From the NCBI GenBank assembly GCA_964187785.1, contig OZ076409.1, forward strand, positions 2,668,001-2,732,000: 64,000 nucleotides of DNA, read 5' to 3'. A program made the translations under genes and the position numbers. Positions within the stretch are counted from its first letter, which is position 1; each line of letters starts with the position of its first letter. The notes beneath the pieces are model-generated. The model was not told the origin of the DNA and made no database searches. It saw nothing but the letters and a program-made list of their open reading frames with translations. Positions 30,809-54,130 of this stretch are shown here, piece by piece. This stretch comes from Amphiscolops sp. MND2022. Taxonomy: Eukaryota.

Positions 30809-31696
30809 CATCACTAATCCATCAGCGGACTTAGTGATCCTACAACTTGATCTATTAGTGAAATTACAGTGCTATATTATCAAGGTTCATCGCAATCACA
30901 TCGCCAAGATTGCGGGTGAACAAAGTGTAGGACATTTAATTGATTTCATTTAATGATCCATCAGCGGATCTCACGGGACTTTAAAATGCATGAAAAACCA
31001 TCCTATACTCATCGTCGCTTTGTGATTATTAACTTTCATTGTGCTTCTCATTTCTTAACAAGAGCATGACACGTCTATATTTCATCATCCTGACTAGCAA
31101 CTACAAGGAATGAGAAAGTACATCCTTAATTCATCCTAAAAAAGAGTGAAGTGCTGGATATCTGTTTTATTAGATTAACTCATCACTAGTTCATCGTAAA
31201 TTCATCGCTAGTTCGACTTGTGTTAGAATTAGCCGAATTTTTAGTTGAGTTCATCCTAAACTCATCGTTGGAATTTCATTCATTAGATTTTGCTGTTTTA
31301 TTGAATGTATTCATCCTAAAGTCATCGTATATTTGTCTTCACTGCAGAATTAGCTGTTTCACCTGTTTTATTGACTGAATTCATCCTGAATTCATCGTCA
31401 ATTTCACTAGTACTGGAAATTAGTTATTTTCGAGGAGAGTTCATCCTTTTACCATCGTTGATTTAAATTGTGCTGGAAATCATTCATTTTGAAGACGAGT
31501 TCATCCTTTTATCATCGTCAGTTTATATCGTGTTGATTTTCGAGCTAAAAGACCACCATTCATCGCATTTTCATCCAGAGCTAAACCAGACTTGAAAAAT
31601 CAGCAAATATTCTGACGAATTCATCGCGTTTCCATCTTTAGTTTTGAAGTATTGATTTTAGTGCTACAATTAGTTGGAAAACATCGTTTTCTCATC
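30809..31696 (+). promoter_or_regulatory. Phased CATC-N7-CATC motif array in LTR
   Basis: Pairs start at 30809, 30888, 30999, 31121, 31192, 31252, 31312, 31382, 31442, 31502, 31561, 31622, 31682. Confidence 0.75.
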
Positions 31697-31753
31697 CTGT
31701 GATGCAGTTTACTCTGGTTTGACTCGAAATTAGTATATTATTGAATGATTTGA

Positions 31754-31975
31754 GTTGCTATAGAAACCATGACACTGCGTGCAGGCAATTGCGACATTGT
31801 AAAGTGATGATTAGTCATAATTAGCGTATGTAGATGTATCATGTGGTTTGGCCAACTTGCGGCAGTTCACAACACCGGTCACGTGACTTACCAATTAGCA
31901 CCAACTGGCAACAGCCAATAAGAGTCGGCTGGTAAGAGATTTAGCGTCTTACCAGCCTGAAAAGACACGTGAACT
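31754..31975 (+). promoter_or_regulatory. Candidate LTR promoter module
   Basis: X-box-like GTTGCTATAGAAAC, E-box GTCACGTGAC (31878), two CCAAT boxes, 11-bp stem hairpin 31927-31957, second CACGTG. Confidence 0.4.
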
Positions 31976-32349
31976 GCTGAATTTTGGACCGCCATTAGAG
32001 ATTACTCAGACAAAAAATTGCGATTAGCTACTGTCCAGTTGGACGAATTACGACAGACTTGAACCAGAAAACACATCTCTTATTCATCGTAAATAACGCT
32101 ACCTCCACAACTCTGAGTAATTTCTTGATTGATATCTATCCGATGAAATTTGGATGAACTCTACTTAATCCTCGCTAACTATTTCTCGTTCGTTACTAGT
32201 ATCCTTGTCTTACTGTAAAACTCATCGCATTTACATCTCAAGTTCAGAAATAGTGAATTTGAGTTTCGAATAACAGTATAAAATAGAAAAATACATCGAA
32301 AATCATCCAGAATCCAGTCTTCACTCATAATTCCTTTTCTCCCACCTCT

Positions 32350-33855
32350 ATGAACCCAGATCTAGGCACTGAACTCAGAAGCGGAAGAATTATTAGTTCC
32401 TCATTAGAAACACCCGTTCAAACGGATCCAGACATGGCTCAGTCTTCTGCCAATGACTCTGATAGTAACGAGACTTCTGATATCTCGTCTCAGTTGTCTG
32501 AAATAAAAGAGAGTTATGAGAGAAAGATAAACGAACTACAGAATGAGTTCAGTCAACTGAAGGACTTAATGATGGCTGTCATAAGTAAGACAGACACCGA
32601 AAACCGACAGTCAAGCTCGAAAGGTCCTTCAAAGCCGACCCACACGGTTGGGCTCGACATGGTGACAGGAGCTACAGAAACCCGCTCCAACCGCCCAACA
32701 ACCAGCTTCACCAACTTCAGAAGTTACCAAGAAGACGATTCAGACGAAGGAGAATCAACCCCCAGAAGCAATGAGGAACGACTACTCAATGCAATCGAGA
32801 CGATCCCCCAACGGATCAAAAACACAACCACCAACACGAAGCTTCTGCAGACACACGTGCCAAATTTCAGAGGCCAAAAAGACAAATTCGTCGAATTTGA
32901 GCACCTTCTCCTCAACCACCTTAGCCCGCTTGCCAACAAAATCACCGAGGAGAACAAACTACACTTCTTTCAAAGCCTTTTGAGAGATGACGCAATAGAA
33001 TACTGGCAATCCATCCAGATAACGCCAATGACAACACTAAAGGACGTACTCGACCTCTTCAGAAAAGAATTTGCAAAAGAGGATCTAAAGGAAGTGGCCC
33101 GTTACAAATGGGATCAAGCACGCTATGATCCCACAACAGAAACATTCGGCGATTTCCTCAAAAATCTCAAGAAGACTGCCAAACAAGCCTTCGGCAATGA
33201 GGCCGACAGAATAATCAAAATGTTCCTGTTTGGAAAACTGCCAGTCGAGATTCAACAAGAGCTCACCATGGCAAACAAAGAAGAGAGCTCCCCAGAGGAA
33301 ATCAAAACCTACCTAATGCGAAAATACCAGTACCAGCAGTACGTCGCGCCACCCACGGCAATCCAACCATTCAACGCGGTCACCTCCTCAGCACCACCTA
33401 CGATTACAACGACGAAGCCTACAACAACAACGACGACCGCACAACCGACAGAACGAAAACGATTTGAGGGACAATGTTTCTACTGCGGAAAGACAGGACA
33501 CCGCAAAACGGAATGTCGCGCCCGACAACGAGACGAAGCGAACGGCATAAAGAAGGAGGATGCAATCCCAATGAAGAAAGCAGCCGATCCAGATAAGCCG
33601 AAATACAATCCAAAATTGGTCTGCCAGATTTGCGGTTACACAGGCCACTCAGCAAGGGATTGCAGACGACGTGTCCCTAAAGAAAGCAGTTCTGCATATG
33701 GAAAGATTCCATACGCAACGAATTCACAAGATGACAACAGAACTAGAAGACAAGACTTAAAACGACAACAAAAGCCGATGAATCCTATGCAAGCAGTCAC
33801 CGAAGAAGAAGACCAAGAAACCTACTCTGATGAAGACATAAATCAGGGTTTTTGA
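32350..33855 (+). CDS. gag: Gag (501 aa)
   Basis: Capsid-like region and two CCHC knuckles (CFYCGKTGHRKTEC, CQICGYTGHSARDC); the ORF starts inside the LTR. Confidence 0.93.
   Translation: MNPDLGTELRSGRIISSSLETPVQTDPDMAQSSANDSDSNETSDISSQLSEIKESYERKINELQNEFSQLKDLMMAVISKTDTENRQSSSKGPSKPTHTVGLDMVTGATETRSNRPTTSFTNFRSYQEDDSDEGESTPRSNEERLLNAIETIPQRIKNTTTNTKLLQTHVPNFRGQKDKFVEFEHLLLNHLSPLANKITEENKLHFFQSLLRDDAIEYWQSIQITPMTTLKDVLDLFRKEFAKEDLKEVARYKWDQARYDPTTETFGDFLKNLKKTAKQAFGNEADRIIKMFLFGKLPVEIQQELTMANKEESSPEEIKTYLMRKYQYQQYVAPPTAIQPFNAVTSSAPPTITTTKPTTTTTTAQPTERKRFEGQCFYCGKTGHRKTECRARQRDEANGIKKEDAIPMKKAADPDKPKYNPKLVCQICGYTGHSARDCRRRVPKESSSAYGKIPYATNSQDDNRTRRQDLKRQQKPMNPMQAVTEEEDQETYSDEDINQGF
32660..32671 (+). 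other. Primer-binding site
   Basis: TGGTGACAGGAG directly after the LTR terminal CA; TGG is complementary to tRNA CCA; cognate tRNA not identified. Confidence 0.75.
33846..33852 (+). other. -1 ribosomal frameshift slippery site
   Basis: G GGT TTT (X XXY YYZ) immediately before the gag TGA; pol is in the -1 frame. Confidence 0.85.
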
Positions 33856-36800
33856 TTCCGCCACGATTTCCACCCGCTAGAAACACAACGCGCGACCAAC
33901 GACTTTCGACTCAACCGACTACACACGACCGTCCAATGAAGAAATGGCAGCCTTCACTGGACAAACGACTAAAAGCTGACGACGTCTATCAGCGAAGACT
34001 TTCCAACGATGAAAAAGCGATGAGAAATGCACGTCAACTCAACGGCAGCCGCTTTTCTCCACTCGCTGAAATCAACGATGAACAAACGCTGAACTGGCAA
34101 CCAAACACCATGAGGCAGGTGGAAGATGCCAAAGAGATGGAAACCCACCATCTAGACGACGACTCGACTTCACACTCAACAATCGACAAACGGCTTAGTA
34201 TTAAAAAACATGCAAAACAGAGTAGTATTAACGTTTCAAAAACTAAAAAACATGCAATTAAAACAGAAATTCACGTTCTCAGTCCCACTTTACATTTAAA
34301 CAAGAAAGATAAAATGCTGTACGTCCCTCTTCAGTTTGACAAATACGAAAACAGCGCACTTTTAGACACAGGCGCAATACAAAGTGCAATGTCTGAAGCC
34401 GAACTGCGAAAAATAACAACGGCTCATCCAGAAGCCATCCTTCAAGAATTCCCCCCTCCGAATTTCAAAATTCAAATAGCAAACGGGAACTTAGTCCCAG
34501 TGCGTAAGCAAGCCTTACTTAGATTTTACGTTGCTGGAAAAGTATTCGAAGAAACGTTCCTAATCCTTCCAACAATGGGAACAATTTTAATTGGAATGTC
34601 CTTTTTTGAAAAGTACTCAGTCAACTTAGACATCAAAAACCACCTTGTCCACTTCCCTAATCACATGATGTCCATGCAAGTTAGACAGCAAAAGAACAAC
34701 AGATTCAAGACTGGTTTAATTGATTTGTGTTCCAGTACTAGAACAGTGATCCCTCCTCTCCATCAAGTGATGATACAGGTCCACAGTGACGCGGACATCT
34801 CACTTACAACTGGTACAGTTGAGGGCTCACCTGGATTCATGCGAAAGACGTGTTTGCTTGTTTCTCCAGCTTTGGTTGACCTAGACGAGGGCAAGACGAC
34901 AATCCAGGTCACCAACCCAAACAACCACACGTACACACTTGAAGCCAACACCACTCTGGCACACTTTCGCATCCCGACACCACACCAGGCGGCAAACATC
35001 ACGCCCATGCCAGTGGAACACTTGAACTTGATCACCAAGTATCCAGATGAAGCCGAAGCAGTGATCAACCAACTGTTCGTGAACCCTGAAATGAAGTCAA
35101 CCAAGTGGTACCCAACTCCCGAGACGTGCAGTGAGCCAGACAAACTCAACGCAATTGAGCGACGGATTTATGATGAGATTCTGGCAACGCGAGAGCTCGA
35201 GAAGCTTGACCCGTCCCAATCCGATGAACAACGGATGAACTTCCTGAAGAACTTCAACTGGGACGACTCGCTTCTTACTCCGTCCCAACGGTTACAGGTA
35301 GAGGAGTTGCTGGTAAAGTACAACTCCATTTTTGCTAGACACCGTTTTGATATTGGCATGAACACTGATTTTAAAGTTAAGTTAACACCTCAACATGAAG
35401 AACCTGTTTATTCACAAAGTCTCCCGACTTCGACAAATTTGAAGGACGATTTGCTCGTGGAGTTAGCCCTAATGCAAGAGTACGGGATTATAACTACTTT
35501 GCCTCACAGCAAATACTCTTCCCCGATATTTGCTCAGCGTAAACCTAATGGTAAATTGAGGATTTTAGTTGACTTGAGAAGAATAAACCACCTGATCAAA
35601 AACGATTACGGTGAGCACAATCATCCCGTAACAACAATTGCTGACGCTGCCCAACACATGGCCGGGAAAAAGTACTTCTGCAAACTTGATTGTTCCCAGG
35701 CCTACCATTGCATTCCAATGGCCGATGAGCAATCTGTCCAACTGTTATCGTTTAATTTTGGGTCTAGAACTTTTGCATTTTTACGTCTAGCACAAGGTCT
35801 TAATCGTTCTTTGTCAGCATTTACAGGAGTAATCCGTGAGTATTTGGACCCCTTGGTCAAAGCGGACCGCTGTGCCCAATATGTTGACGATATTGGAATT
35901 GCAGCACACTCACCCGAAGAATTGATTACCAACCTTGAACTTGTTTTTCAACAATTGCACAAAGCTGGTCTTAAACTTAGCATGAGTAAATGTGAATTTG
36001 GACAAAAACAAATTGAGTACTTGGGAAAAACCATTTCTAGCACTGGGATTGCTCCCATTGAAAAACGCGTAACAGACTATTTAACGAAGTTGAAACCCCC
36101 CAATTCAGTGAAAGCGTTGCAACGTTATCTTGGTTTTGTAAACTTTTACAGGTCTTATATTCCCCGTCTAGCTGATAAAACTTGTTGTTTACAGGAACTC
36201 ATCAAGAAAGACGTCCCTTTCAAGTTGAACCAACAACATAAAGATGCTATTTTTGAAATTAATGAAAGTTTGTTAAAAGCAACAAAAGTGTCTCTGAAAT
36301 TGCCATTACCAGATAAACAACTGGTAATCATGTGTGACGCCAGCGAACACGCTGCAGGCTATGTGTTGTTAATCGAGGATTATGCAGACCCGTCAGTCAA
36401 ACATACATACGCCCCTGTTGCATTTGGATCTAAGAAATTTCAGGGCGGCCAGATGTCTCTAACAATGTATGCCAAAGAGTTTTTAGCTATGCACTTTGCC
36501 TTCGATGAATTTGGCCACATTTTGTGGGGTGCGAAAAAACCCATCATTGTTATGACTGACAATAAGGCCTTGACTAGATTTTTCCAGGCGAAGCATATCC
36601 CGCCTTCACTTTGGAATTTTTGCGATCAAACCCTTCAGTTCAATTTTCTATTAGCACATGTTCCAGGAGTTGAAAATCCCCCAGCGGATTACTTATCTCG
36701 GCTTGAGATTAGACCCGAAGACCGTGTACATTTAAAATTGACTGATACTATTCCAATTCACAGGATCGAGATCGACATCGCCTCCCGTACACCAAAACAG

Positions 36801-38945
36801 GAGGAAGACGAGCCTGATTACTTCCCCGCGAGCGAACCACTCAGATGCAAACGCCAGAAGGATGTCAAAGAGATGAAATTGGCAACTGGCACTGACGTGG
36901 CTCATGACGATGGGAAAGGGATGAAGTTCACCAACTGTGAGAGAACAGCGGCCTCAGATGACTTCGCGACTGACAACCATCTGACGTACCGCCTCACAGA
37001 CGTGGACGAGCCGATTCAACTCTCGCAATTCATCCGTAAAGTATCATTATCACACCCGGTAATGAGTCAGGTTAGCCCCGCCGAGGGGATCGATCTAATT
37101 CAGGTCCAGAAAAATAACTGGGTTATCCAAAAAATGATTAGATTTGTAGCAGGTACTGAAATTTTGCAACACCCAGTTAATATGCAAGACCAGTTTTTTC
37201 AAAAGTTGTACAAAAATCGAAAACGCCTACAAGTTGTAAACGGCGTCTTGTACAGACAGTTTTTTGATCACACGGGACTAGAGTCTCACAAGCAGTTAGT
37301 CGTTCCTGAAGACTGTATTTTGAAAATAATTAGGACTCTACATAACAGCCCGGTACAAGGACACCCTGGTTTAAAGAAAATGTTGTATGAACTTCGTAAA
37401 AGATATTACTCTCCTAACTTAGCCTGTAAAGTTCAAAAAGTCCTTGACGGATGTGAAAACTGCATGAAGTCTAAAAGTGTAAAAGAAACGCAACTACGTC
37501 CACCGTTACAAAAAATCTACGACCCGTGCGACGGACCAGAAGACCTGCTGGAAATAGACACCGTTGGTCCACTCCCGGCATCGAACGGTTTTACACACAT
37601 TCTGACGGCTGTTGACGTTTTTTCGCGCTACCTGTTCGCCGTTCCGCTGAAGAGACCTGACACACATTCCGTAGTCAGAGGACTACTGTCGATCTTCACA
37701 AAACACGCGTATGTGCCCAAACACATTCTGACCGACAAAGGCACGGCGTTCACGGCTGAACTTCTGTCTGAAATCGCGAAAGCGGCTGATATTCACATCT
37801 CCCATGCCACGATAAAGCACGCGCAGACAATAGGCATGGTGGAGAGAACGCACGCGAAACTGAAAAAGATCCTTAAGATTAGTGTAAACGCAGACAGACC
37901 ACAATGGGACCGCTATGTCGACATAGCAATCATGGCCCATAACACAACGTATCATGATTCACTGAAATGTTCACCAACTGAAATTTTCCACGGAAGAACA
38001 CCATACAACTCACTAGATCTGCAATTCCGAAACGCAAACAAACCGGCTGAAACAAAGTGCAAAGACGTGAACGAAATTCTAGACAAAATGAATTTTATCT
38101 TCAGAGACAATCTAGACAACATCATTTCCGCCTATCACAAGTACAAAACGTACTATGATAGAAAAGCACGAGCACAGCCACTGAAGGTGAATGACTTTGT
38201 GTTCCTACTAGACCCTAAGTACGACTCTCAGAGAAGCAAAGAAGAGTTTAAAACTTTCCACTGGAAAGGACCGTACAAGGTGATTGAAGTGCTATCCGAT
38301 AGCAACTACATCATCCGCAAAGTAGGCACACACCAAACTCAGTGCGTACATCGCATGCGACTGAGATTGTTCAAACCGGAATTTCCGATTGACGACATCA
38401 ACGTGTCCAAACATCTCTACCCAGATACCGAAAGGGTTGAAGACACGGACATTTTCGACTCGAATATTCCGACGACCGACGAAGTAGATCAGAATGAGAA
38501 TGACAATCTAGATCAAGACTTGGTCGAAGAAGAGCCTTCAGAAGAAACAATTCCTCGGGTACAAGAACAACACACTCCACAAGTAATTCCACCAGAAATA
38601 ACCACGAGAATAGACTATCAGCAAGTAGAAACTGATCACAACAACTTTAGACCACCTACAGTTAGATTTGGAACGCGAGAAGAAATTATTCTACCGCCTC
38701 CCCGCGATGAAAGTAGGATAAGAGTACCTCTGAGAGACGAACAACACGAAAACCAGTCACAACAGACAAACACGCAAAACGAAAATGAAGAAAGGATGAG
38801 TTCTAGACCGTCTAGATCAAATCAAAGTAGGTACAGGTTACGTGAGAACCCTACACCGAAAACGTATCCAGACTTCCTCATTCATGAGATTACTTCAGCT
38901 AGAAACGCACTGAGAAAGACCAACAAAATAGACGTAACGATTTAG
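33852..38945 (+). CDS. pol: Pol polyprotein (PR, dUTPase-like, RT, RNase H, integrase)
   Basis: LLDTGA protease; LDCSQAY and YVDD in RT; CDAS/KEFLA/TDNK in RNase H; HHCC, IDTVG/TDKG/VER and WKGPY in integrase; uninterrupted 1697 codons. Confidence 0.97.
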   Translation: MIPPRFPPARNTTRDQRLSTQPTTHDRPMKKWQPSLDKRLKADDVYQRRLSNDEKAMRNARQLNGSRFSPLAEINDEQTLNWQPNTMRQVEDAKEMETHHLDDDSTSHSTIDKRLSIKKHAKQSSINVSKTKKHAIKTEIHVLSPTLHLNKKDKMLYVPLQFDKYENSALLDTGAIQSAMSEAELRKITTAHPEAILQEFPPPNFKIQIANGNLVPVRKQALLRFYVAGKVFEETFLILPTMGTILIGMSFFEKYSVNLDIKNHLVHFPNHMMSMQVRQQKNNRFKTGLIDLCSSTRTVIPPLHQVMIQVHSDADISLTTGTVEGSPGFMRKTCLLVSPALVDLDEGKTTIQVTNPNNHTYTLEANTTLAHFRIPTPHQAANITPMPVEHLNLITKYPDEAEAVINQLFVNPEMKSTKWYPTPETCSEPDKLNAIERRIYDEILATRELEKLDPSQSDEQRMNFLKNFNWDDSLLTPSQRLQVEELLVKYNSIFARHRFDIGMNTDFKVKLTPQHEEPVYSQSLPTSTNLKDDLLVELALMQEYGIITTLPHSKYSSPIFAQRKPNGKLRILVDLRRINHLIKNDYGEHNHPVTTIADAAQHMAGKKYFCKLDCSQAYHCIPMADEQSVQLLSFNFGSRTFAFLRLAQGLNRSLSAFTGVIREYLDPLVKADRCAQYVDDIGIAAHSPEELITNLELVFQQLHKAGLKLSMSKCEFGQKQIEYLGKTISSTGIAPIEKRVTDYLTKLKPPNSVKALQRYLGFVNFYRSYIPRLADKTCCLQELIKKDVPFKLNQQHKDAIFEINESLLKATKVSLKLPLPDKQLVIMCDASEHAAGYVLLIEDYADPSVKHTYAPVAFGSKKFQGGQMSLTMYAKEFLAMHFAFDEFGHILWGAKKPIIVMTDNKALTRFFQAKHIPPSLWNFCDQTLQFNFLLAHVPGVENPPADYLSRLEIRPEDRVHLKLTDTIPIHRIEIDIASRTPKQEEDEPDYFPASEPLRCKRQKDVKEMKLATGTDVAHDDGKGMKFTNCERTAASDDFATDNHLTYRLTDVDEPIQLSQFIRKVSLSHPVMSQVSPAEGIDLIQVQKNNWVIQKMIRFVAGTEILQHPVNMQDQFFQKLYKNRKRLQVVNGVLYRQFFDHTGLESHKQLVVPEDCILKIIRTLHNSPVQGHPGLKKMLYELRKRYYSPNLACKVQKVLDGCENCMKSKSVKETQLRPPLQKIYDPCDGPEDLLEIDTVGPLPASNGFTHILTAVDVFSRYLFAVPLKRPDTHSVVRGLLSIFTKHAYVPKHILTDKGTAFTAELLSEIAKAADIHISHATIKHAQTIGMVERTHAKLKKILKISVNADRPQWDRYVDIAIMAHNTTYHDSLKCSPTEIFHGRTPYNSLDLQFRNANKPAETKCKDVNEILDKMNFIFRDNLDNIISAYHKYKTYYDRKARAQPLKVNDFVFLLDPKYDSQRSKEEFKTFHWKGPYKVIEVLSDSNYIIRKVGTHQTQCVHRMRLRLFKPEFPIDDINVSKHLYPDTERVEDTDIFDSNIPTTDEVDQNENDNLDQDLVEEEPSEETIPRVQEQHTPQVIPPEITTRIDYQQVETDHNNFRPPTVRFGTREEIILPPPRDESRIRVPLRDEQHENQSQQTNTQNENEERMSSRPSRSNQSRYRLRENPTPKTYPDFLIHEITSARNALRKTNKIDVTI

Positions 38946-38972
38946 CCAAGAAAAGTCTCATTTTAAATCTGA

Positions 38973-41201
38973 GATGTATTACGGATGAACAAATCACAAA
39001 ACGAACGAATTACATGCAATTTTAACTTAAAAGGTACATGAAGATGTAAAATGGATGAAAAGTTACTAAAAATCACATGAAAACCGCATACAAACAAAAC
39101 GAGATGTAAAACGGATGAAAAACGATCAAAAAACCAGAAAACACAACACACAAAAATTTGAGATGAAAAAAGGATGAAACCACACGAAAATTTAGCTCAG
39201 ACACACGAGAGATGAAAAAGTGATGAACTCAGCCAAAAAATCGACCAATCAACATGCAATATTTACTAGCGATGCATTTGAGATGGAAAAATACCATCAG
39301 AATGCAAGGGCACCCACGTTCATGCTATTACAAGACTCTAGCTCGGCCAGAGGATGAAATAGCGATGAACTCGATCCAATTATTCATAAATTACATGAAA
39401 TCAATTAACGAGATGAATTTGTGATGGACACTACCATCAAATCGCGACCGAATTTATCGTTAACCTGACACAATACTCTAGCTTCGCTGGAGGATGTCAA
39501 AACGATGAATTTAGTCTAAATGGAAATTCGAAAATATTAAATGACTTACCAACACCTCTTTGTGAGGGGAAACACCATCAACATAACATCACAATAAATC
39601 AGCTAATTCGCAAACAACATGTAACTCCACGAAACGATAAAAAACAACCGACCTTATTTCGAATCATGCAACGAAATTATGCGACACAAAAATGAAATGA
39701 TCAATACATGTAAAGTTCAAAGACCTGCCAAATCAATGACGTCACGAAAGCAATTAACAATTCCAAACTACATGCAATACAAATGAGCAACGCACGGAAA
39801 TATACATGTACCGTTCAAGAATGAATGAGATAATATATGCAATTCACACCAAAAACATCCGAACCTAGACGAATAAAAATGAAACAAACGATCGAAAATA
39901 CATGAAGTCTACTAACTTACATGCAAAATATAAGAACTGACGAAACACCTACAAAACTAATAAAGGAGTGAGCACCCCCCAGTAAACATCAGCTCATAAC
40001 ATACAAAACACCCCTATCGAAAAGCTAAAAACATTCCTTCGTGCTGGCTGGCATTTTCTCTGAAAAGAGTGCTGGTTAGTTGAGGCGGGGAGCTCACAAC
40101 CATATTCGGATGAAGCTTGCTGCGTTGGTTATCCAGCGGCTAGTGGATTCTCAGTTAGTTTTGTAGGGGCTTTGTGACGACAAAGCCCTGTCCAAATGAA
40201 CGAAAATAAAATTAGAAAACAGGAAACTACCACCGAACATATAACGACATGTCAATAATGGGGCAACCCATTTAAAAGAGCACATCATGTAACAATCCAT
40301 ACATGCAAATACAAGAAACAGATAGTCTAAAACTGGACACATGCATAACCGTAGATGTCAATCACATTGATTGATCGGACTGACCGTCGAATGGACAAAC
40401 CCATTTCGACGAATAATGGCAAACAACCAACCGAAAAATTGACATATAGACTATATATAGCCCGAAACTACGAGATTCCATTTATCTGAAAGGAGCGGAG
40501 CAGCTCCACTCACCCAGCTCTGGACTGAAGCCACTAGTACCTTGCACGCCTACAGGCTATCAGTACCACTGCTGAGTGAACTTATTTTCGACTGCCACGC
40601 AAGCGGCGGTCACCAGAATTCGAACTAAAAATACATGCAATGACGTTCCGAAGTTGACAAATTAGAAACATGACGACGATGATCAAAACACATGTACCAT
40701 AAAATTCATGCAAATTCAAAAACACGACAAATGGTTATAACCGTATAACGCTAAAATACATGAAGAAAACAATCCGAAACACCGCAATATTAATAAAAAT
40801 TTCCTCCGGACATGAAAAATGCAACCCCCGCTTACGTTATAGCCAAATAACATCGAAAACACGCAAAAATCCGTACATTTCAACGCACGATGAAAAGAAG
40901 ATGAACTATACAGCAGAAACTGGACAAGACAAACTTGCGATACAAAAACGATGAACTATAGCAAATAACGCACGAAAGTGCTGAAATCAAACGCAAGATG
41001 AAAAAACGATGAAATACGTAGAAAAACCACATGTAACAACATGCAATATTTCTGACGCACCGAAAGATGTAAAAACGATGACAAAAACAGTTTTCACGAC
41101 GTCGCTTGGTCGACCGAGGAAAACGTGATGAAAATGAGATGAGAAATCAAAAATCAAACGCTGACGAATTACTTACACTACCACGAGATGTAATAACGAT
41201 G
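38973..41201 (-). promoter_or_regulatory. GATG-N7-GATG (CATC on minus strand) arrays downstream of pol
   Basis: Pairs at 38973, 39043, 39103, 39162, 39211, 39271, 39353, 39412, 39493, then again from about 40889 to 41187. Confidence 0.7.
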
Positions 41202-41542
41202 AATACCATAAAAGCGATGCGCGACCGATGATCTATGATACAAAAATACCGAGGACAATGCTTCAAGTGAACTGTTGGACGAACTTGTTGATTTACGCGT
41301 ACTTAATATCCTCTGTAACTATCACTAACAACTCAAAAGGAAAACAGATGTTGGGCACCAAAATAACTATTGTTGTAAATACACTGCTACCGATCTTTCC
41401 GACGTAGCAGAATTTTCTCTCTCTCTCCCCTCTCTATCCAGAGGCTGTACCCAATGTTGACAAATCATTAAAGAACTAATACTACAAAAACAATAATATA
41501 AACAATACAAATCTAAATCAACTGAGTTTGCACCATTCAAAG

Positions 41543-42480
41543 TTAATTGCCGATCTCTGGGCTCATTGCTCGCTCTCCATCCACTTCATATCCTAACTGT
41601 TCATAGATATGACGCCGGTAATCTTCATTCGCGACGATGCCAATGTCATCCCATAGGAGCTCCTCCGTGAAATCTGACAGATCCGTGATACGCCCAACTG
41701 CTTCTGAGACTTCATCCAAAAGCGGCCCTTCAACACTCTCGTACAAGCGTATTCGATGTGCCTTCAAGTAACTGACGACCGTAGCGCACACACTGCTGGT
41801 CACATCACTAGACATGTGACCCACTTGCACACACTTCGTTTCCAACGGAAACTGCGGACTTTCACACAAGCATAACAAGAATCGAAGGAAGCGAACTGAC
41901 GATTCACTAGCACACGCCCGGAACAGGTCGATCTCAGTACCAGCCGTAGCTAATACTTCAGGGCTCACAAGACTGCGATACTTGGCCACAAAGTTCGGCA
42001 TGTCGCGATCCATCCGTCTCCGCTCAGCTGACGTGATTCGCTTGAGTTCCAGAAGTAACTCCGTGAAACGGCTTGCCTCCTGAACCACAAGTTCTGTCTC
42101 TGCCTCTGCTAGAATGACCGGACAACAGATACTGAGGTGGAATGTCACCTCATCCTTCAGTCCCTTCACATTGAGAACTTCCTCAACGACCGCAAGCAGG
42201 AACTTCTGCACTCGCACTAAATCCTCTTCAAAATGGGCTAGATTTGCATAGTCGTCGGAGTGCACTGCAAACCGCCCCCGCAACCACTCTAATTTGGGTC
42301 CACTCAACTCCAATTCAGACACAACCAAGCTCAGGAAAGCACGTACATCTGTCACTGGAGGTAGAACAGACTCATCCACCACATAGACCAACAGGGCTCG
42401 TACAAAACAGGCGCTCTCATATGCCCAGTGACACCCGCGAATTGCACTGTCACTGAAACTCCACTGGTATGCAGTCACTA
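41543..42480 (-). CDS. Antisense hAT-transposase-derived gene, last exon
   Basis: tttcag acceptor, phase 1; KFLLAVVEEVL...LSICCP, RFLLCLCES and PLLDEVSEA resemble a hAT C-terminal half. Confidence 0.75.
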
Positions 42481-42619
42481 CTGAAACAACAAAAAGCGAC
42501 AAAGAATTGTACACACGTTTCACACGATACTCACAAACCAATCCAACCCCCCCCTGCACACAATACTGACTTAGCCGCCCGAACCAAACACACGAAATAA
42601 ATAATACAAGAATACTCAC

Positions 42620-42815
42620 GAGCACGGAGAACAAGACTCAAGACATGAAGCCGCATCGCAACGCCAGGATCACCACAGAGCACATAGTCTAGCGGATCAA
42701 CATCTCCCTCGTCATCAGGTGTCCTCAGTAAACCGCAAATGAAAGGCCATTTCTCACGCAATTCAGAGAGAACGTCAGGCACGTCCCACAAAGACACCTC
42801 GCCTTCTAAGACCGA
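42620..42815 (-). CDS. Antisense hAT-derived gene, exon
   Basis: ttgtag acceptor, gtgagt donor, phase 0 to 1; SLWDVPDVLSELREKWPFI resembles the TRW...WP segment. Confidence 0.75.
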
Positions 42816-42945
42816 CTACAAAAACAAATCACAAGTTAAAACAGTTTTATTAACGGAAAGATACCACCCCCCCCCGCAAAACATAATACATAGCGAGCCC
42901 ATTACAACCATAAACTTCGATAAAACAAAACTCTATGACACTCAC

Positions 42946-43431
42946 CCGCAACAGTTTGGGACAGGACAACAACAGATCATCTTTCACATAGGGTTTCAGT
43001 CTAGACTGCAAGTGATTAAGGATAACATGAACGTCGGTGCCCCCAAGAACTCTCGCGCTCGCAGCCACTATAAGTCGATTGATGTCAGCCAGTCGAACGG
43101 GTACTAAGCTAATCGTCCCAATTCCGGCACTTGAGCACAAGACACGATTTAACGGCGGGAACAGCTCACAATTTAGGCCGAGGGGACAGATCTCACTCAG
43201 AGCACCACAAAGCAGGTTCACAATCCACGAAACTAATCGCGGCTCCCAATCCTGCGTGTAGCTAAAGGAAAACAGGATATACTGCGAGACCCCTTCTGAG
43301 CTACACATGCTCACTCGCCCAACGACCCTGTCCGCCACGATGCCAATGGAGAAGCTACTGAACGTCGACTCACTCCACAAAGCAATCAGACGCCGCATGA
43401 CGAAGGGCCACAAACCCAAAATGATCACGCC
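42946..43431 (-). CDS. Antisense hAT-derived gene, exon (degenerate RNase H-like core)
   Basis: ttttag acceptor, gtgagt donor, 486 nt, phase 0 to 0; GLWPFVMRRLIALWSESTFSSFSIG. Confidence 0.75.
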
Positions 43432-43565
43432 CTAAAACACAAACGTAATACTGTACATAAAGCAAATCTGCAAACTCAGAAACATATACAAACTACATAA
43501 TTCAAATCTTATATTTGCCGCCCATTCGCTACTAGCTACAACTAATAAAATAAAAATATAGTTAC

Positions 43566-44128
43566 CACAATATCATCAAGTCGACACCTCCGTCCAAACA
43601 TGGTCACGTGCTGCGCATCGGTCGCCACCATTAGCTCCCATAATCCACATACACTCAGCAGGTCACAGTCCCGGTACAGAGCATCAATCACCAGACACAG
43701 GAACAGCCGCACAGTACGTTCCTGGCCTTCCGATTCGTCCTGTTCTAGATCTTCCCAGACAGGTTTCCCTGCGAGTTCCATCTGGAAAACTTCTGCTGGG
43801 GTAACATCTGGGCAACGCTCAACAATAGGCACAGTCACTCCTTCCAACAAAGCTGATTGAGCCACACTGTCCGACACTGACATCAGATTGCCGTCACGAT
43901 CCCGCAATGCTAGCCCGCGTCTAAGCCGAACCAGACAATCGAGGCGGTGATGTTGGACGCCCCGACAATGCTCCATAAAAGTCGTGATACCACGACTTGC
44001 AACCTTTATGTCCCGCTTGCACAACAAGCACCTCACATAAGATTCACGGGACTGATGATATTTCGCGTATCCAATAGCTAAACCACAATACACGTGATTG
44101 AACCAGCTCCGAGCGATCCGTTTCCGCT
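43566..44128 (-). CDS. Antisense hAT-derived gene, zinc-finger exon
   Basis: aacag acceptor, gtaact donor, phase 1 to 0; W...CLLCKRDIKVASRGITTFMEHCRGVQH (BED-like C2H2). Confidence 0.8.
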
Positions 44129-44786
44129 CTGTTTTAACACAACAGCATACATATCAGACACCATAGAAATGCACACAGCAACGTACCACATCTTATGAAC
44201 ATCCTCAAAAACCGAAAAATGCAAAAGTAAAACGACAAATCAAAAAGTTCACCCGGAGTGATGAAAAAATGATGTAAAATAACATTTTCATCGGGAAATA
44301 TAAGCGAAAACGAAGAAAAAACAAAAAATGAAAAAGAGATGTAATTGTAGACCACCAGGATGAAAAATGGAAACTTTAAAGAATGAAAGCCTCGAACGAT
44401 GAAAAAGAGATGAATAGAACAACTTTGAACCAAAATTGAGATATTCTAGAGCGAAAACAACTTAACGATGAAGAAGAGATGTAAACTGAAAAGAAATCAC
44501 TGAAAGATAGCGAAAACCCAAACGAGAAATTTTAAAGATGTAAAAGAGATGAAAAGTTCCAAAAAACGACCAGAGAGCGAAAAGACTATTGTCCAAAACT
44601 TTTGACGATGAGAAAACGATGGAAAATGAAAAACTGCGGAAAACATATAGTGAAAACAGAAAAAACGATGGAAAATGGATAGAAAAGAGAAAACGTGAAA
44701 AATGCTAGCGAAAGTAAAAACGAAAAGGGAAACGAATGAAAATCTACTGATCAGATACTTCACCGGTTTAAAGCTGTTTAGTTAAC

Positions 44787-45458
44787 CTGGCAGACGAGAT
44801 GCAATGGGCTCGTCATCGGAGTCCAACAGGCTGGGTCCCATTGGAGACGTCTCGAGGTCGACAGTACCCACATTGGACACAATACTTCCTGGAGCTGACA
44901 TGCCAGATGGAGGACTATGCAATGAGAGATCATCAGGAATTTCCAGTCGGGTCTCGGTGGTACCAGCTGAGGGAACTTCGGACGGGTCAACGTCAACGTC
45001 AAATGCCCCTGGAACATCAGCAACCGGTGGAGGAGGAGAAGCAGACAGGGAAGTCTCCACCTGGGGTTCATAAAACGTGGAACCATCTGCTGTCTCAGTA
45101 ACGGCTTGGACCTCCTTGTCCGCAGTATCCACACAGGCATCACTGGCTGCATCTATGCAAGCAACAACGGCATTTGCAGCGGTGTCAACTGTGACGCGAG
45201 GTGGAGGAAGAGGACTCCTGGGAGAGACACTGGCGTTGAGGTACCGATGGAAGCTCGGTGAGAGGACGGAAGCGGAAGCCCTCATCACAGGAGAACTCAC
45301 TGCACCTAGTGACAGGTCCTCAAGGAAAGAAGACAACTCTAGTGGAGGGGGCCCTCCTTGAGTGCTAGCATCAGCACTAGTTGCGGCGAAATCACTCGTC
45401 CCTACTCCTACGGAATAGCTGATGGGACGAGGCCTTGGTGCGTGGATCGGTGTGGGGC
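44787..45458 (-). CDS. Antisense gene, acidic S/P/D-rich exon
   Basis: tttcag acceptor, CAG|gttaac donor, 672 nt open, phase 1 to 1. Confidence 0.7.
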
Positions 45459-45701
45459 CTGAAAGAAGAAACAGTTACTGGACGACGACGATTAGAGAAG
45501 AAAGAGCGCGTACGCCGCGCGAAGAAAGAAAACCGGAGAAGAATACATCCAAAACTCATCTTCAAAAAATGGGATTTACAGCGAGTCAGTCATGGAGAGC
45601 TGTGAATGTTCATGACACATCCTAAATTCATCTCGAAGGTGAATTACATGGGTAATCGACCGCAAAGGACACTACATGCAGATAAGATGTTTACATCGGA
45701 A

Positions 45702-46240
45702 TCACATCGGAGTGTTCGGACGATAGCCTAGAGAAGTGAAAAGGAAATTGACAAACTCACTGTACTGCTGGATGCTATCCCGCAGCATGTCCCGCATGTG
45801 GCGGTCATACCACCCGAAGGTGATGCTGCCTAGGGAGGCATACCAGGGGTAGTGGTCTGAAACACCATACGAAAAGGAGTCAGCTACTGGACGGAGTAAG
45901 GATGAGATATGAGGGATTCGAAGACTGAACTGAAGAATGGAAGGATAGTACTTACACTGCGGAAGATACGGGACGTTAGGGGCCTGTTCAGTTTGCTGCT
46001 CAGGTTGATACTGAGGTACGTGAGATGCTGCAGGGATCGGAGCATCTTGAGGCGGAACTGTCTGCAACGTAGTCAGTTCGGAAATTATGCCGACAGAGTG
46101 AACGGAGTCCGCTAAAACCAAGACACGCCTTCAATTCCTAATTATTCCCCGGCCCGTTTGTGAAGAAGAGAAAAAATAGTGCACTTACTTTCTGTGACCT
46201 CGGTCTCTGGTAACGAATAGATGGAGTTGATATCCGACAT
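45702..46240 (-). CDS. Antisense gene 5' exons (46240-46189, 46111-45956, 45856-45761, optional 45727-45702)
   Basis: ATG at 46240; gtaagt, gtaagt and gtgagt donors, all phase 1, with matching acceptors. Confidence 0.55.
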
Positions 46241-47362
46241 CGCGAAGAATTGCAAAACAATCTGAAAAGAATGGAAGACGGTGAAAGAAGGAAAGAAATC
46301 GAAGAATCCAAGAGCAGAGAATTTGATCAGTAATTAAATGGCCTGATCAACCATGATTACAGAAGAACAAATTCAATAGAAGATTTCAAAGAGCGCGACG
46401 CAGCTTGAATGCCATGTTAATCAAATACTTGAATTCAGAAGATGAAAAATCGATGAAAAATCTCCGATTTCAAATACTGACAGCACTTTTCTTCCCAGTA
46501 CAACCAACTCAAGCTTTCTCTGAGAATGGATCGTCCTCTCCTAGGACTTGACAAAAAAAACTTCAAGTATTTGATTTGTCGACAGCTGCCAGTCTCAGAT
46601 CAATACCGACGAAGTTGAGCGGAAACGCGCAAAGGAAATCGTGGCGATTTCAAACCGACTTAAATGGAGGATGATTTATGGATGAGAATGCTACTGACAA
46701 CCGGTTGTAATTTCCTTCAGTTATAATTCAGTCTCAACCAATCAGATCGAGCAACAGTTACTATGGCGACGAATTCATCTCTTTCTCATCCACTCAAAAG
46801 TCGAGCAGCGGAAGTAACTTTTGACAGTTGCTATGGCGACGATTCATCTTCTTTCCATCGCGAGTAAACAAAGCGGCGGCGCCAGCCATTCCGCTAAACA
46901 GCATCGATGTCTCGTTGAGCAAACAATTCATCGTTCATTCATCCCCGACTCGTTGCCAATTTGTCAATGAAGCTAATCGAATTGTTTATTCAGCGTAGGC
47001 ATTTTGGAGGGAAACTTTTCTCCGAGAAATCAGCTTCTACCGAAAATAACCAGCCGAAACTCCCGTCAAAAGCATGACAACCAATAAAATGCAGATCAGC
47101 GGACATTCGATGGACCAAGAATTAGAGTTGCCGCGTCGAAAATTTTAACCGAAATCACCCAGGATGATGCCAGAAAAGACGATTACCGAAGGTCCTCTTC
47201 TCAGAGAAGCTCTCACAGGACAGAACAAACGAAGGACATGCCAGTTCAGAACTAACGAAGGCCATTTTCTCACCAACCAAACGAAGGACCAGTCGAAGCC
47301 AACGCCGAGACAACCATCCTCTGCACATTTGGCCCCTGCACTCTCAGTCCAAATCCCGCCCC

Positions 47363-47368
47363 GGGGAG
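47363..47368 (+). other. Short polypurine tract
   Basis: GGGGAG abutting the 3' LTR TG. Confidence 0.55.
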
Positions 47369-49605
47369 TGTCATGCCAGCATGATGGAAATATAATCTAC
47401 TAAATATCTGTAATGTAAATATTATGTCTTATGTACTTAGATATGGGCAATATGATGTCATATAATAAGAGCCATGGTTGTGAGCAACCCTACGTTACTT
47501 GTACTTTAATCCCTATCCCCCCTGAGTTTGAGCTATATATATTTACTTAATACTGAGCGCTCTAATTCCGGTGTCCGCACAAATGATCTTGCCAATAGCT
47601 TTTAATGTGCTATCTTATTCAATATTGGTTTGTCACGATAAGGGAGAGAAGTTTTCCGGTCAGACTGGATCGAGAGATGTAAAATAATGGAATCTGTAAC
47701 TTCTACTAGCTCCCTCGCCTCAGGACTTGTAGTCGTGACGAAATTCAGAAAAGTTCATCACTAATCCATCAGCGGACTTAGTGATCCTACAACTTGATCT
47801 ATTAGTGAAATTACAGTGCTATATTATCAAGGTTCATCGCAATCACATCGCCAAGATTGCGGGTGAACAAAGTGTAGGACATTTAATTGATTTCATTTAA
47901 TGATCCATCAGCGGATCTCACGGGACTTTAAAATGCATGAAAAACCATCCTATACTCATCGTCGCTTTGTGATTATTAACTTTCATTGTGCTTCTCATTT
48001 CTTAACAAGAGCATGACACGTCTATATTTCATCATCCTGACTAGCAACTACAAGGAATGAGAAAGTACATCCTTAATTCATCCTAAAAAAGAGTGAAGTG
48101 CTGGATATCTGTTTTATTAGATTAACTCATCACTAGTTCATCGTAAATTCATCGCTAGTTCGACTTGTGTTAGAATTAGCCGAATTTTTAGTTGAGTTCA
48201 TCCTAAACTCATCGTTGGAATTTCATTCATTAGATTTTGCTGTTTTATTGAATGTATTCATCCTAAAGTCATCGTATATTTGTCTTCACTGCAGAATTAG
48301 CTGTTTCACCTGTTTTATTGACTGAATTCATCCTGAATTCATCGTCAATTTCACTAGTACTGGAAATTAGTTATTTTCGAGGAGAGTTCATCCTTTTACC
48401 ATCGTTGATTTAAATTGTGCTGGAATCATTCATTTTGAAGACGAGTTCATCCTTTTATCATCGTCAGTTTATATCGTGTTGATTTTCGAGCTAAAAGACC
48501 ACCATTCATCGCATTTTCATCCAGAGCTAAACTAGACTTGAAAAATCAGCAAATATTCTGACGAATTCATCGCGTTTCCATCTTTAGTTTTGAAGTATTG
48601 ATTTTAGTGCTACAATTAGTTGGAAAACATCGTTTTCTCATCCTGTGATGCAGTTTACTCTGGTTTGACTCGAAATTAGTATATTATTGAATGATTTGAG
48701 TTGCTATAGAAACCATGACACTGCGTGCAGGCAATTGCGACATTGTAAAGTGATGATTAGTCATAATTAGCGTATGTAGATGTATCATGTGGTTTGGCCA
48801 ACTTGCGGCAGTTCACAACACCGGTCACGTGACTTACCAATTAGCACCAACTGGCAACAGCCAATAAGAGTCGGCTGGTAAGAGATTTAGCGTCTTACCA
48901 GCCTGAAAAGACACGTGAACTGCTGAATTTTGGACCGCCATTAGAGATTACTCAGACAAAAAATTGCGATTAGCTACTGTCCAGTTGGACGAATTACGAC
49001 AGACTTGAACCAGAAAACACATCTCTTATTCATCGTAAATAACGCTACCTCCACAACTCTGAGTAATTTCTTGATTGATATCTATCCGATGAAATTTGGA
49101 TGAACTCTACTTAATCCTCGCTAACTATTTCTCGTTCGTTACTAGTATCCTTGTCTTACTGTAAAACTCATCGCATTTACATCTCAAGTTCAGAAATAGT
49201 GAATTTGAGTTTCGAATAACAGTATAAAATAGAAAAATACATCGAAAATCATCCAGAATCCAGTCTTCATTCATAATTCCTTTTCTCCCACCTCTATGAA
49301 CCCAGATCTAGGCACTGAACTCAGAAGCGGAAGAATTATTAGTTCCTCATTAGAAACACCCGTTCAAACGGATCCAGACATGGCTCAGTCTTCTGCCAAT
49401 GACTCTGATAGTAACGAGACTTCTGATATCTCGTCTCAGTTGTCTGAAATAAAAGAGAGTTATGAGAGAAAGATAAACGAACTACAGAATGAGTTCAGTC
49501 AACTGAAGGACTTAATGATGGCTGTCATAAGTAAGACAGACACCGAAAACCGACAGTCAAGCTCGAAAGGTCCTTCAAAGCCGACCCACACGGTTGGGCT
49601 CGACA
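47369..49605 (+). repeat. 3' LTR (2237 bp)
   Basis: Copy of the 5' LTR, followed by TSD CCACC. Confidence 0.96.
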
Positions 49606-50219
49606 CCACCTTTTTATTAGTCGGCGGTTTTCGGTGAAAAACGCAAACTATAGTAGTGACTTTTTTTATAGTGACAGATTTTATAAGACCAACGAAGTGA
49701 CAGAATTTATAAGCTTTATAAGCTGACTTGAACTAACACTAAATGCCACACTACTTCTACTGGCACTTGAGATAGAGGTTAATTAGGCTTTTTTGAGGCC
49801 CCTTTCACATTTTTCGGCACTATGAGACTTCCTGGGGACCGAAAAATTGAAAACTTGTAAATATGTTGTCGCTGAAAAAGTTTTATGCGGAGTTGCTAGC
49901 AAATTTTTTGCTCCATTTTCGCTTGTCGAGCTTTAATTTCCAGTTCCATTAAAAGAAGTTTAAATTAAAGTTTTAGAGACGTCTATTGGTGATTTTTTAA
50001 TGATGAATGGAAAAAACTTTCGTGACAATGATGGTAAAATGTACGATGTGGTGAGAATGTAAATAACATGTAACTAAACTTGAAAACTACCAAAAATTCT
50101 GAAATTGAGCACCAGAAATTACAAGTGAAAAAATTAACACAGTTTTCTAAGATTTACTCGAAATTTGTGTTCCATTTTTTTTAAAAAAAGGCGGATTGGA
50201 AGCAAAGAGAGGGTTGGGG

Positions 50220-52115: not shown

Positions 52116-52745
52116 CCGAGAGTTTTCCGCATACCGTGTTTACCCTAGTAGTACTCCCATACATTTCTTGCAAGAATCTTGCAGAAGTGGAACATATCGG
52201 ACATTATATGCCTGCAATAATCTTCCAAGCATCTTACATTTCAGACAAACATGTCAGATTCTGTCAGATCAGACATTTCTTGCAGGTTCAGATCCGTCCA
52301 AGAATTTTGCAAGACAAAGAAATTATGCAAGAGAATATTCGGAATGTACGGTGATTGTTTTTTCAATTTTATACCAAAGTGTTCGAATTGCTTGACCGTT
52401 TTTATATATATAAAAACACGGTCATGCAATTTGAACACTTTGGTATAAAATTGAAAAAACAATCACCGTACATTCCGAACATTCTCGTGCAGAATTTCTT
52501 TGTCTTGCAAGATCCGTCCAAGTATCTTGCAAGAAATGTCTGGACTTACAAGAATCTTACAAAAAACTTCCGAATCTGCAAGAAATGTCTGATCTGACAG
52601 AATCTGACATGTTTGTCTAAAATGTAAGATGCTTGTAAGATTATTTCAGGCAGATAATGTCCGATATGTTCCACTTCTGCAAGATTCTTGCAAGAAATGT
52701 ATGGGAGTTCTACTAGGGTAAACAGGGTATGCGGAAAACTCTCGG
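52116..52745. mobile_element. Foldback/palindromic element (~630 bp)
   Basis: Arms of about 290 bp are near-perfect inverted repeats around a TATATATA centre. Confidence 0.85.
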
Positions 52746-52995: not shown

Positions 52996-53038
52996 CTGCA
53001 ATTCAATTGAATAAAACTCAAAAGCTGTCACGCGAGAT

Positions 53039-53196
53039 ATTTTCCGCCCTCATCATTTACCGCCCTGATCATTTACCGCCCTGATCATTTTCCGCCCTGT
53101 TGATTTTCCGCCCTGTTGATTTTCCGCCCTGTTGATTTTCCGCCCTGTTGATTTTCCGCCCTGATCATTTTCCGCCCTGTTGATTTTCCGCCCTGA
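53039..53196. repeat. 16-bp minisatellite, about 10 copies
   Basis: Unit GATTTTCCGCCCTGTT and variants. Confidence 0.85.
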
Positions 53197-54130
53197 TGAT
53201 TCTGATCAAGTTTTGAGTTCGTACTTATAGTTGAATACGATGGGTATTGTTGAACTCGTTCGTTCGTTCGTTCGTTCGTTCAGATGACCATATACGGTCT
53301 GGTGCAAAACTTTTTTCTATCAGTCGCCAATTCGGAGGCGTTTTTACTGCCACTATCCTGCGCGAACTAAGTTATTGATGGGTAAAAAAACCATGGCGGT
53401 TGTAGAGAATCGAACCACTGCTCATCTCTCGTCTTACTCACACAAAGTAGGAATTGAGCCTCTGATTGTAAAAATTGATTTGGACTCGAGACCAAAATTT
53501 CTGAACGAAAAGTATTTTCGCAAACCGTAAAATAAAAGTTGAAAAATTTTAAATGTTGATTACAAACATTTTTCTTCGAAAATTCTGAGACCAAAATACA
53601 AAATTTAGAAACTATGCATATTACAACTGATTTCGTTTCTAACTTATTTTAGTTGAAATTTCGAAAGCTCCTAGATTAGGATTCAGTAGTAAATACAAGT
53701 TGTTGAATGTGATAATACGAAGTTACATACAAAATTGTTTGCAAAACTGATTCTGAAGTGTTTTCACAAATTTAATAATACTCGATCAAGTATTTTTAAT
53801 TACCTCCAAAATCACTCGGGTTTCGAGCTAATTTTATTTTCAGTCCAAATCCTTATTTACAATCAGGGGTGCAATTCATTGATTACAGTGTGGTAGTTTC
53901 AGTGAAAAAAAAAAGAGAAAAAAAGCAACCTCATCGTGTCTTCCTTTGGTTCTGCTTGCTTCATTTTTGTATGCACATATTATGTACAACTTTATTGCGA
54001 TTTGAGATTTGAAGTAAGTATCTTTAGCTTTTTGGTTTGTGCCTAGTTTGTACTTAGACTGTTTTTAGAAAACTCTGTGTTTCCTGACCATTAGTCTTAA
54101 TGCAGAACTACACTGCAAGGTCAAGGTAAA

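Follow-up and report, generated by a model that had tools for sequence, protein, structure and literature searches.

The locus described here raises the question of why a retrotransposon should carry a large, intron-containing gene on the strand opposite to that of its own gag and pol frames, and of what the product of this gene might do. The window, by which we mean the whole 64,000-nucleotide stretch of DNA that was analysed (Amphiscolops sp. MND2022, assembly GCA_964187785.1, contig OZ076409.1, positions 2,668,001 to 2,732,000 of the forward strand), contains one intact Ty3/gypsy long terminal repeat (LTR) retrotransposon of 19,184 bp at positions 30422-49605. Between the end of its pol frame (38945) and the start of its 3' LTR (47369) lies an antisense gene, on the minus strand from 46240 to 41543. 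It is probable that this is an accessory gene of an autonomous Ty3/gypsy clade of an animal genome, laid out antisense in eight exons, by which the element may provide its own DNA-binding regulator.

The antisense gene and its conservation

The gene model consists of eight exons and seven GT-AG introns, the latter 77, 99, 302, 658, 134, 130 and 139 nt long in order. The joined exons (3159 nt) form 1052 codons and a stop, and are free of stops until the end. An initial annotation of this DNA had joined the five exons numbered 4 to 8 in the list below, and had extended the product to 1052 amino acids (aa) by three further 5' exons. Both parts of this model were borne out: the five exons have AG/GT flanks and join to 950 codons with a single, terminal stop, the other two frames carrying 53 and 64 stops, and the three 5' exons are also linked by GT-AG introns. 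Every one of the motif strings that had been quoted is found in the translation.

46189-46240, minus strand: exon 1, with the ATG at 46240 (read; frame checked)
45956-46111, minus strand: exon 2 (read; frame checked)
45761-45856, minus strand: exon 3 (read; frame checked)
44787-45458, minus strand: exon 4, acidic, Ser/Pro-rich and of low complexity (from the composition of aa 1-325)
43566-44128, minus strand: exon 5, 187 aa, BED-like finger and conserved region (124 relatives; ratio of non-synonymous to synonymous substitution rates, dN/dS, 0.10)
43935-44105, minus strand: BED-like zinc finger, WF...CxxC-x16-H-x5-HH...C (zf-BED match below the cut-off; C/H invariant in three lineages)
42946-43431, minus strand: exon 6, 162 aa, the most constrained, with conserved D/E, DWE and DVH..N (20 relatives with the same borders; dN/dS 0.086)
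42620-42815, minus strand: exon 7 (identity to two other lineages, 65% and 37%)
41543-42480, minus strand: exon 8, aa 741-1052 and stop, predicted all-helical C-terminal domain (63 relatives; model confidence 77; dN/dS 0.18)
41411-44207, minus strand: exchangeable cassette, which runs from the last 80 bp of intron 4 through exons 5-8 to about 130 bp past the stop (from DNA identity to the copy L052+L022)

Intron 2 (45857-45955, 99 nt) is itself in frame and free of stops, so that its retention would add 33 residues and keep the frame.

The gene is not confined to the window. Using its 1.9-kb 3' part at 90-100% identity, at least 40 copies were scored from 193 candidates, and 13 copies with flanks were compared in detail after projecting the exon model onto each. 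In each of the 13, the alignment follows the window without rearrangement, from the end of pol through the antisense gene into the 3' LTR. The GT-AG pairs are retained in 90 of the 91 introns, the one exception being AT-AG at intron 5. The spliced frame is intact in 10 of the 13 copies, with one stop in L009 and frameshifts in L012 and L013. Insertions and deletions are divisible by three in 22 of 25 events in exons, compared with 4 of 241 in introns, a tally over the 13 copies in which events are not independent owing to shared ancestry. They are also about 20 times denser in introns than in exons.

The initial annotation had proposed a comparison of other copies and of dN/dS, and this comparison finds the gene in 13/13 copies with a dN/dS of about 0.2. 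With the window copy as the reference, the ratio, which is a rough measure among transposon copies, lies between 0.17 and 0.24 in 12/12 comparisons, against 1.37 and 1.51 for shifted-frame controls on the same columns. Measured against the copy L010, it is lowest in exon 6 (0.09), exon 5 (0.10) and exons 1-3 (0.15), intermediate in exon 8 (0.18) and exon 4 (0.27), and highest in exon 7 (0.44). In a second element lineage, referred to below as the P0073 type, substitutions at codon positions 1, 2 and 3 number 408, 346 and 710, codons with a single change comprise 553 synonymous and 396 non-synonymous cases, and exons 5-8 are open in 25 of 29 copies.

As far as can be judged from the aligned copies, the maintenance of an open spliced frame and of the splice sites is far beyond chance, and a set of chance open reading frames is ruled out by the 90/91 splice pairs kept, the 10/13 intact frames and the exon indels in multiples of three. 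It thus appears very likely that the antisense gene is real and under selection.

Element lineages, cassette exchange and the carrier element

Relatives of the antisense protein are numerous but fragmentary. In a whole-library HMMER search, exon 8 matched 63 cluster representatives with identities of 22-89%; of these, 62 are at most 367 aa long, the length of one or two exons. Such genes are therefore missed by gene callers, since the database relatives are exon-sized fragments. Exon 6 has 20 relatives and the exon-5 profile 124, none of them with a recorded Pfam domain or name. All exon-6 relatives share the start and end residues of the exon, followed by a read-through that begins with GT, so that the introns occupy conserved positions. 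Fusions of exon 8 into longer proteins were absent among the homologous proteins searched, which is weak evidence.

Each query yielded more than 1000 candidate loci in the 1.07-Gb genome. The relative P0073 is 56% identical to exon 6 of the window and has 1257 candidate loci, which fall into identity classes of about 99, 80, 75 and 64%. Identity to exon 8 of the window is 38% for P0003 and 25% for P0018, and both are present in this genome at 99-100% identity, together with diverged classes of their own. The best identities of P0013 and P0017 in this genome are only 32% and 31%, and these two sequences therefore derive from other genomes. Some matches to exons of the accessory gene lie on the same strand within 2-8 kb of each other (C13:53575747-53584550 and C4:10763103-10766095), as does a pair of hAT domains at C12:42821787-42824136; such close spacing suggests tandem or nested copies.

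The P0018 type is one of the three lineages for which the surroundings were read. Its pol lies 1.9 kb downstream of exon 8 on the opposite strand, in a tail-to-tail arrangement, and is 70% identical to the pol of the window over residues 518-1697. Upstream of exon 8 it keeps exons 5, 6 and 7, whose borders and splice signals match those of the window and are thus common to three lineages. Compared with 70% for pol, identity to the window is 55% in the finger part of exon 5, 40% in the rest of exon 5, 26% in exon 6, 37% in exon 7 and 25% in exon 8. On these identities, the accessory protein changes far more rapidly than pol. In the sole P0018-type copy that was read (L059:511-514, C12), exon 5 shifts frame just past the zinc finger, which reflects either a copy-specific frameshift or an extra small intron.

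Exons 5-8 have been exchanged as a block. In one copy of the P0073 type, made up of two adjacent stretches that were analysed separately (L052+L022), the pol protein is 98% identical to that of the window. At the DNA level, identity to the window is 97% over 36104-41357, 94% over 41358-41410 and 96% from 44208 on. Within 41411-44207, however, the DNA aligns only in patches of 65-71% identity, and the encoded proteins are 52-65% identical. Since the block holds exons 5-8 and the acidic N-terminal exons stay with the backbone, it is the folded part of the protein that has been swapped. Thirty loci with the P0073 type of cassette were compared. On the upstream side, identity of the flank to the window is 93-96% in 10 and 79-80% in 20, and the break lies at 44207-44209 in 29 of them and at 44200 in one. 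The same break next to differing flanks implies a transfer of the cassette from one element lineage to another, for which template switching in the course of reverse transcription would be the obvious route.

The element that carries the window copy is young and intact: its LTRs are 2238 bp long, 99.78% identical (blastn, 99.777%; 4 mismatches and 1 gap) and terminate in TG...CA, and the five bases CCACC abut the element at both ends as a target duplication. The order of domains in pol is that of Ty3/gypsy elements, namely protease, reverse transcriptase, RNase H and integrase (gag-asp_proteas at residues 166-259, a weak match; RVT_1 at 569-734; RT_RNaseH at 826-930; Integrase_H2C2 at 1157-1215; rve at 1235-1325). 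The host DNA of the window has a G+C content of about 35%, and the richer block at 30-50 kb is the element.

30417-30421: target-site duplication CCACC, left (same five bases in both flanks)
30422-32659, plus strand: 5' LTR, 2238 bp, TG...CA (blastn against 47369-49605)
32660-32677, plus strand: putative primer-binding site, starting with TGG, abutting the 5' LTR, in frame inside gag (role assigned from position)
32287-33855, plus strand: gag frame, 522 aa, first ATG at 32350 within the LTR (zf-CCHC, E 1.9e-07)
33834-38945, plus strand: pol frame, 1703 aa (RVT_1, E 1.6e-23; RT_RNaseH, 3.8e-16; Integrase_H2C2, 2.9e-13; rve, 3e-13)
47363-47368, plus strand: short purine run abutting the 3' LTR, putative polypurine tract
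47369-49605, plus strand: 3' LTR (blastn)
49606-49610: target-site duplication CCACC, right (same five bases in both flanks)

The gag frame begins inside the LTR (ATG at 32350, LTR end at 32659), which places the putative primer-binding site in frame within gag (32287-32677). The gag of Ty1 likewise starts within the LTR. The same 124 gag codons are present in the 3' LTR (49233-49637), from where the frame continues into host DNA. Each LTR has two short arrays of 60-70-bp tandem repeats with about two copies each (31293-31525 and 48240-48471), which are possible enhancer-like or binding-site candidates. An A-rich 60-bp tandem repeat of 2.3 copies lies just past the pol stop (39042-39179), and the spacer between pol and the antisense gene (40285-41226) cannot be aligned in 4 of 5 copies of the subfamily at 88-90% identity. 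Outside the element, nested inverted repeats occupy 52116-52745 and 53007-53230, with arms of 177 nt (95% complementary) and 119 nt (88%), and adjoin about 10 repeats of a 16-bp unit; they are probably another, foldback-like repeat element. Elsewhere in the genome, genes for rhodopsin-type G-protein-coupled receptors are abundant, with 75 matches at E<=1e-10 among the 147 scored of 1133 candidates, which marks the host as an animal.

Origin of the encoded protein

The N-terminal third of the protein (aa 1-325) contains 14% S and 13% P and has 42 D+E against 12 K+R; this acidic, Ser/Pro-rich region is probably disordered. A finger follows at the start of exon 5, with the elements W-F, CxxC, 16 residues, H, 5 residues, HH and C, all invariant in three lineages. 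In exon 6, the three lineages keep an acidic residue at 34, DWE/EWE at 61-63, an acidic residue at 117, DVH at 133-135 and Asn at 139. The AlphaFold2 model of exon 8, built on an alignment of 22 sequences, consists entirely of helices, with a mean predicted local distance difference test (pLDDT) score of 77 and values above 85 over most of residues 20-200. The corresponding model of exon 6, with 18 relatives, reached a pLDDT of 36.5 and is unusable. As modelled, the core of about 660 aa belongs to no recognisable family and comprises a strand-rich part and then a long helical domain.

General searches did not place this core. Pfam had no family for any exon in three lineages, nor for the 22, 18 and 47 relatives of exons 8, 6 and 5, apart from zf-BED below its cut-off and the weak DUF7830 match given below. 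Foldseek gave nothing below E 0.7, a search of the BFVD viral fold library with the model of exon 8 gave no match below E 0.47, and single-sequence searches of the PDB with exons 5, 6 and 8 gave none below E 0.13. The Protein Atlas had no usable match for exon 8 or exon 6. DUF7830 (PF25169) appears weakly in 9 of 47 exon-5 relatives, with a best E of 0.015; in the two relatives inspected, this match lies in the N-terminal finger part and hence adds nothing. Transposase_28 (PF04195, TRP28) had no Pfam match in any exon or relative.

The initial annotation had read the protein as a catalytically dead hAT transposase that was domesticated by the retrotransposon. In its general form, this explanation states that the core (exons 5-8) is a captured hAT transposase, with a BED finger, a DDE domain of the RNase H-like type that a helical insertion interrupts, and a dimerisation region, serving either as a dead DNA-binding module or as a live nuclease. 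We regard it as unlikely, yet it survives better than the other alternatives. A source for the finger is certainly at hand in this genome, where candidate hAT dimerisation domains number at least 2215 and several intact frames of 597-697 aa occur. The core, at about 725 aa, has a similar size, and its order of finger, strand-rich part and long helical part resembles that of hAT transposases, the strand-helix pattern being taken from a low-confidence model. Moreover, the conserved D/E34, D/E117 and DVH..N helix start of exon 6 recall what we take to be the D, D and CxxH..LN blocks of hAT enzymes. As regards the catalytic Asp that the initial annotation took to be replaced, a conserved acidic residue is found four residues past the Gly that had been aligned to the first hAT Asp.

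Five intact hAT transposases of the same genome served as a positive control for profile searches. Dimer_Tnp_hAT was detected in all five at E<=7.6e-15, zf-BED above the cut-off in two, and DUF659 in three, one of them above the cut-off. In their alignment, D-x-W, D, C (of CxxH), R-W and E are invariant. By comparison, hAT families of Pfam (Dimer_Tnp_hAT, DUF659 and others) were found in 0/22 exon-8, 0/18 exon-6 and 0/47 exon-5 members at E<=1-10; for the dimerisation domain PF05699 in particular, the counts were 0/22 exon-8 members at E<=1 and 0/5 distant members at E<=10. Profile searches of the PDB returned no hAT. The exceptions concern the finger: zf-BED was seen in 7 of 47 exon-5 relatives at E<=1, with a best E of 0.0022, and in hmmsearch the exon-5 profile gave one hAT a score of 9.2 bits at its BED finger against -1.2 bits for the best reversed control, which is the only positive profile signal with the genomic hATs. 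The exon-6 and exon-8 profiles scored the hATs no better than reversed sequences.

Alignment of profiles with hhalign leads to a similar picture. Against the hAT alignment, exon 5 reached a probability of 0.6%, with the top match placed on the BED finger, exon 6 reached 0.2%, and exon 8 reached 0.3%, with the top match on the C-terminal block. These weak matches come in the expected order, but none is significant: scores for exons 5, 6 and 8 are 20.9, 16.8 and 19.8, compared with 16.3, 16.3 and 13.4 for the reversed hAT alignment. In addition, the C-terminal registers from structure and from hhalign differ by about 60 residues, and exon 8 is without any invariant acidic residue.

The claims of the initial annotation thus separate. 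Three lineages conserve the BED-like finger, with its CxxC...H...H pattern, although it never reaches the zf-BED cut-off of Pfam; judged by its sequence pattern, the finger is plausibly of BED type. The hAT identity of the remainder found no support in Pfam, PDB profiles, hhalign or the fold search, by all of which, as far as profile and fold searches of the kind used here reach, the rest of the protein is undetectable as hAT, while the five genomic hATs scored clearly. Like hAT transposases and their derivatives, such as the ZBED proteins and DAYSLEEPER, the antisense protein has an N-terminal BED-type finger followed by a core of similar size; unlike them, it has a core and C-terminus without detectable profile or fold similarity, and no terminal inverted repeats. 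The accessory role in a class I element stands in so far as the gene is an integral, selected antisense gene, but its proposed class II (hAT) origin is not supported. A fuller version, in which a hAT-derived BED finger and a diverged RNase H-like and helical core were recruited as an intron-bearing antisense gene and then diversified as a swappable, lineage-specific DNA-recognition cassette, seems to us quite improbable. If it were true, a class II protein would be in the service of a class I element, perhaps for lineage-specific activation of the LTR or for integration targeting.

Very improbably, the gene is a passenger, i.e. a host gene that was captured once and is carried without use to the element. 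The G+C content of the cassette (48.8% at 42-44 kb) is higher than that of gag-pol (43-45%) and of the host flanks (about 35%), and the introns suggest capture at the DNA level. However, the gene is present in lineages with pol identity down to 70%, is open in 10/13 and 25/29 copies, and is under purifying selection in two lineages. Transduced passengers are typically limited to one or a few copies (PMC11963269). The spread over diverged lineages and the purifying selection disfavour a one-off transduced host gene.

Finally, a hAT DNA transposon nested in this gypsy copy, for which nothing speaks beyond the BED-like finger, can practically be dismissed, as the same layout is shared by 13/13 copies and two further lineages, and as none of the 9 ten-base inverted pairs around the gene (shuffles: mean 2.1, maximum 8) comes with an 8-bp duplication at up to one mismatch. 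The initial annotation had likewise seen no terminal inverted repeats or target-site duplication around the gene, and had concluded that it was not a nested insertion. The lack of inverted repeats speaks solely against nesting, because domestication would also lose them.

Role of the gene in the element

The preferred reading remains that of an accessory gene that works for the element itself. Introns would survive retrotransposition, because the gene is antisense in the genomic RNA, so that, given the known life cycle, they would never be spliced from it. Since selection acts in replicating lineages, the element needs the antisense protein. An acidic tail, a finger of a DNA-binding type and a large globular core would together be expected of a nuclear DNA-binding factor for the element itself. 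Candidate roles are those of a transactivator of its own LTR, or of a chromatin or targeting factor for this LTR. The core cassette (exons 5-8) is exchanged between element lineages through recombination, and fast divergence together with cassette exchange would be in line with lineage-specific recognition, or with a conflict in which the host represses the element. The function as a DNA-binding regulator, taken by itself, is tentative, and we would put it slightly below an even chance.

Several points weigh against the accessory-regulator reading. The role as a regulator is argued only from architecture and analogy. The zf-BED (PF02892) matches reach E values of 0.11 and 0.066 in two lineages, or 13-14 bits against a cut-off of 20.6. 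The gypsy context was covered for three lineages, by 13, 1 and 1 copies. In the dN/dS values, selected changes are mixed with neutral decay after insertion. No AATAAA or ATTAAA is found in the approximately 290 bp past the stop of the antisense gene, and the promoter, splicing and polyadenylation site of the gene are predicted.

Antisense genes have been described in other retroelements. The HBZ gene of HTLV-1 has its start in the 3' LTR, and one of its forms is spliced. HBZ and other retroviral antisense proteins are the analogue on the animal side; however, HBZ is a small bZIP protein whose gene has a single intron, whereas the gene described here has seven introns and encodes an unrelated protein of 1052 aa. 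In fungi, Boty-like Ty3/gypsy elements of Botrytis cinerea reportedly carry an additional antisense gene, brtn. Both cases are extra antisense genes in a gypsy element, but here the protein is large, has a BED-like finger and comes from an animal genome.

The closest parallel in layout is found in plants. In Ty3/gypsy elements of the Tat/Retand type, such as maize Grande, rice RIRE2 and Silene Retand, the antisense frame aORF-3R lies between pol and the 3' LTR and often encodes TRP28 (PF04195); such antisense frames are described as kept in most copies and across species, and a nuclear or DNA-binding role is suspected (PMC11963269, PMC7264820). The gene in the window resembles them in position and orientation and in its retention in most copies and in diverged lineages. 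It differs in its animal host, its seven introns, its length of 1052 aa, the absence of TRP28 and the documented cassette exchange. In the full-text literature searched, which mostly excludes subscription journals, we found no spliced antisense gene in a gypsy element of an animal and no hAT or BED protein borne by a retrotransposon; a hAT relative on a retrotransposon would be without precedent in this literature.

The antisense layout as such is already known from plants, fungi (brtn) and retroviruses (HBZ). What appears to be new is the animal host, the size of the gene and its seven introns, a protein family that is unrecognised and has a BED-like finger, the extent of its radiation, and the exchange of cassettes. 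The sharp borders of the cassette mean that the folded part of the protein is handled by the element as an exchangeable module, which evolves much faster than pol, and this points to recognition specific to each lineage or to a conflict with the host. Little is understood about the antisense accessory genes of LTR retrotransposons, and the literature searched describes them in plants, in one fungal group and in retroviruses. The gene in Amphiscolops provides an unusually clear animal case, in which a large gene with many introns is under purifying selection in a diverse and successful clade of elements, and encodes a protein family that is absent from domain libraries.

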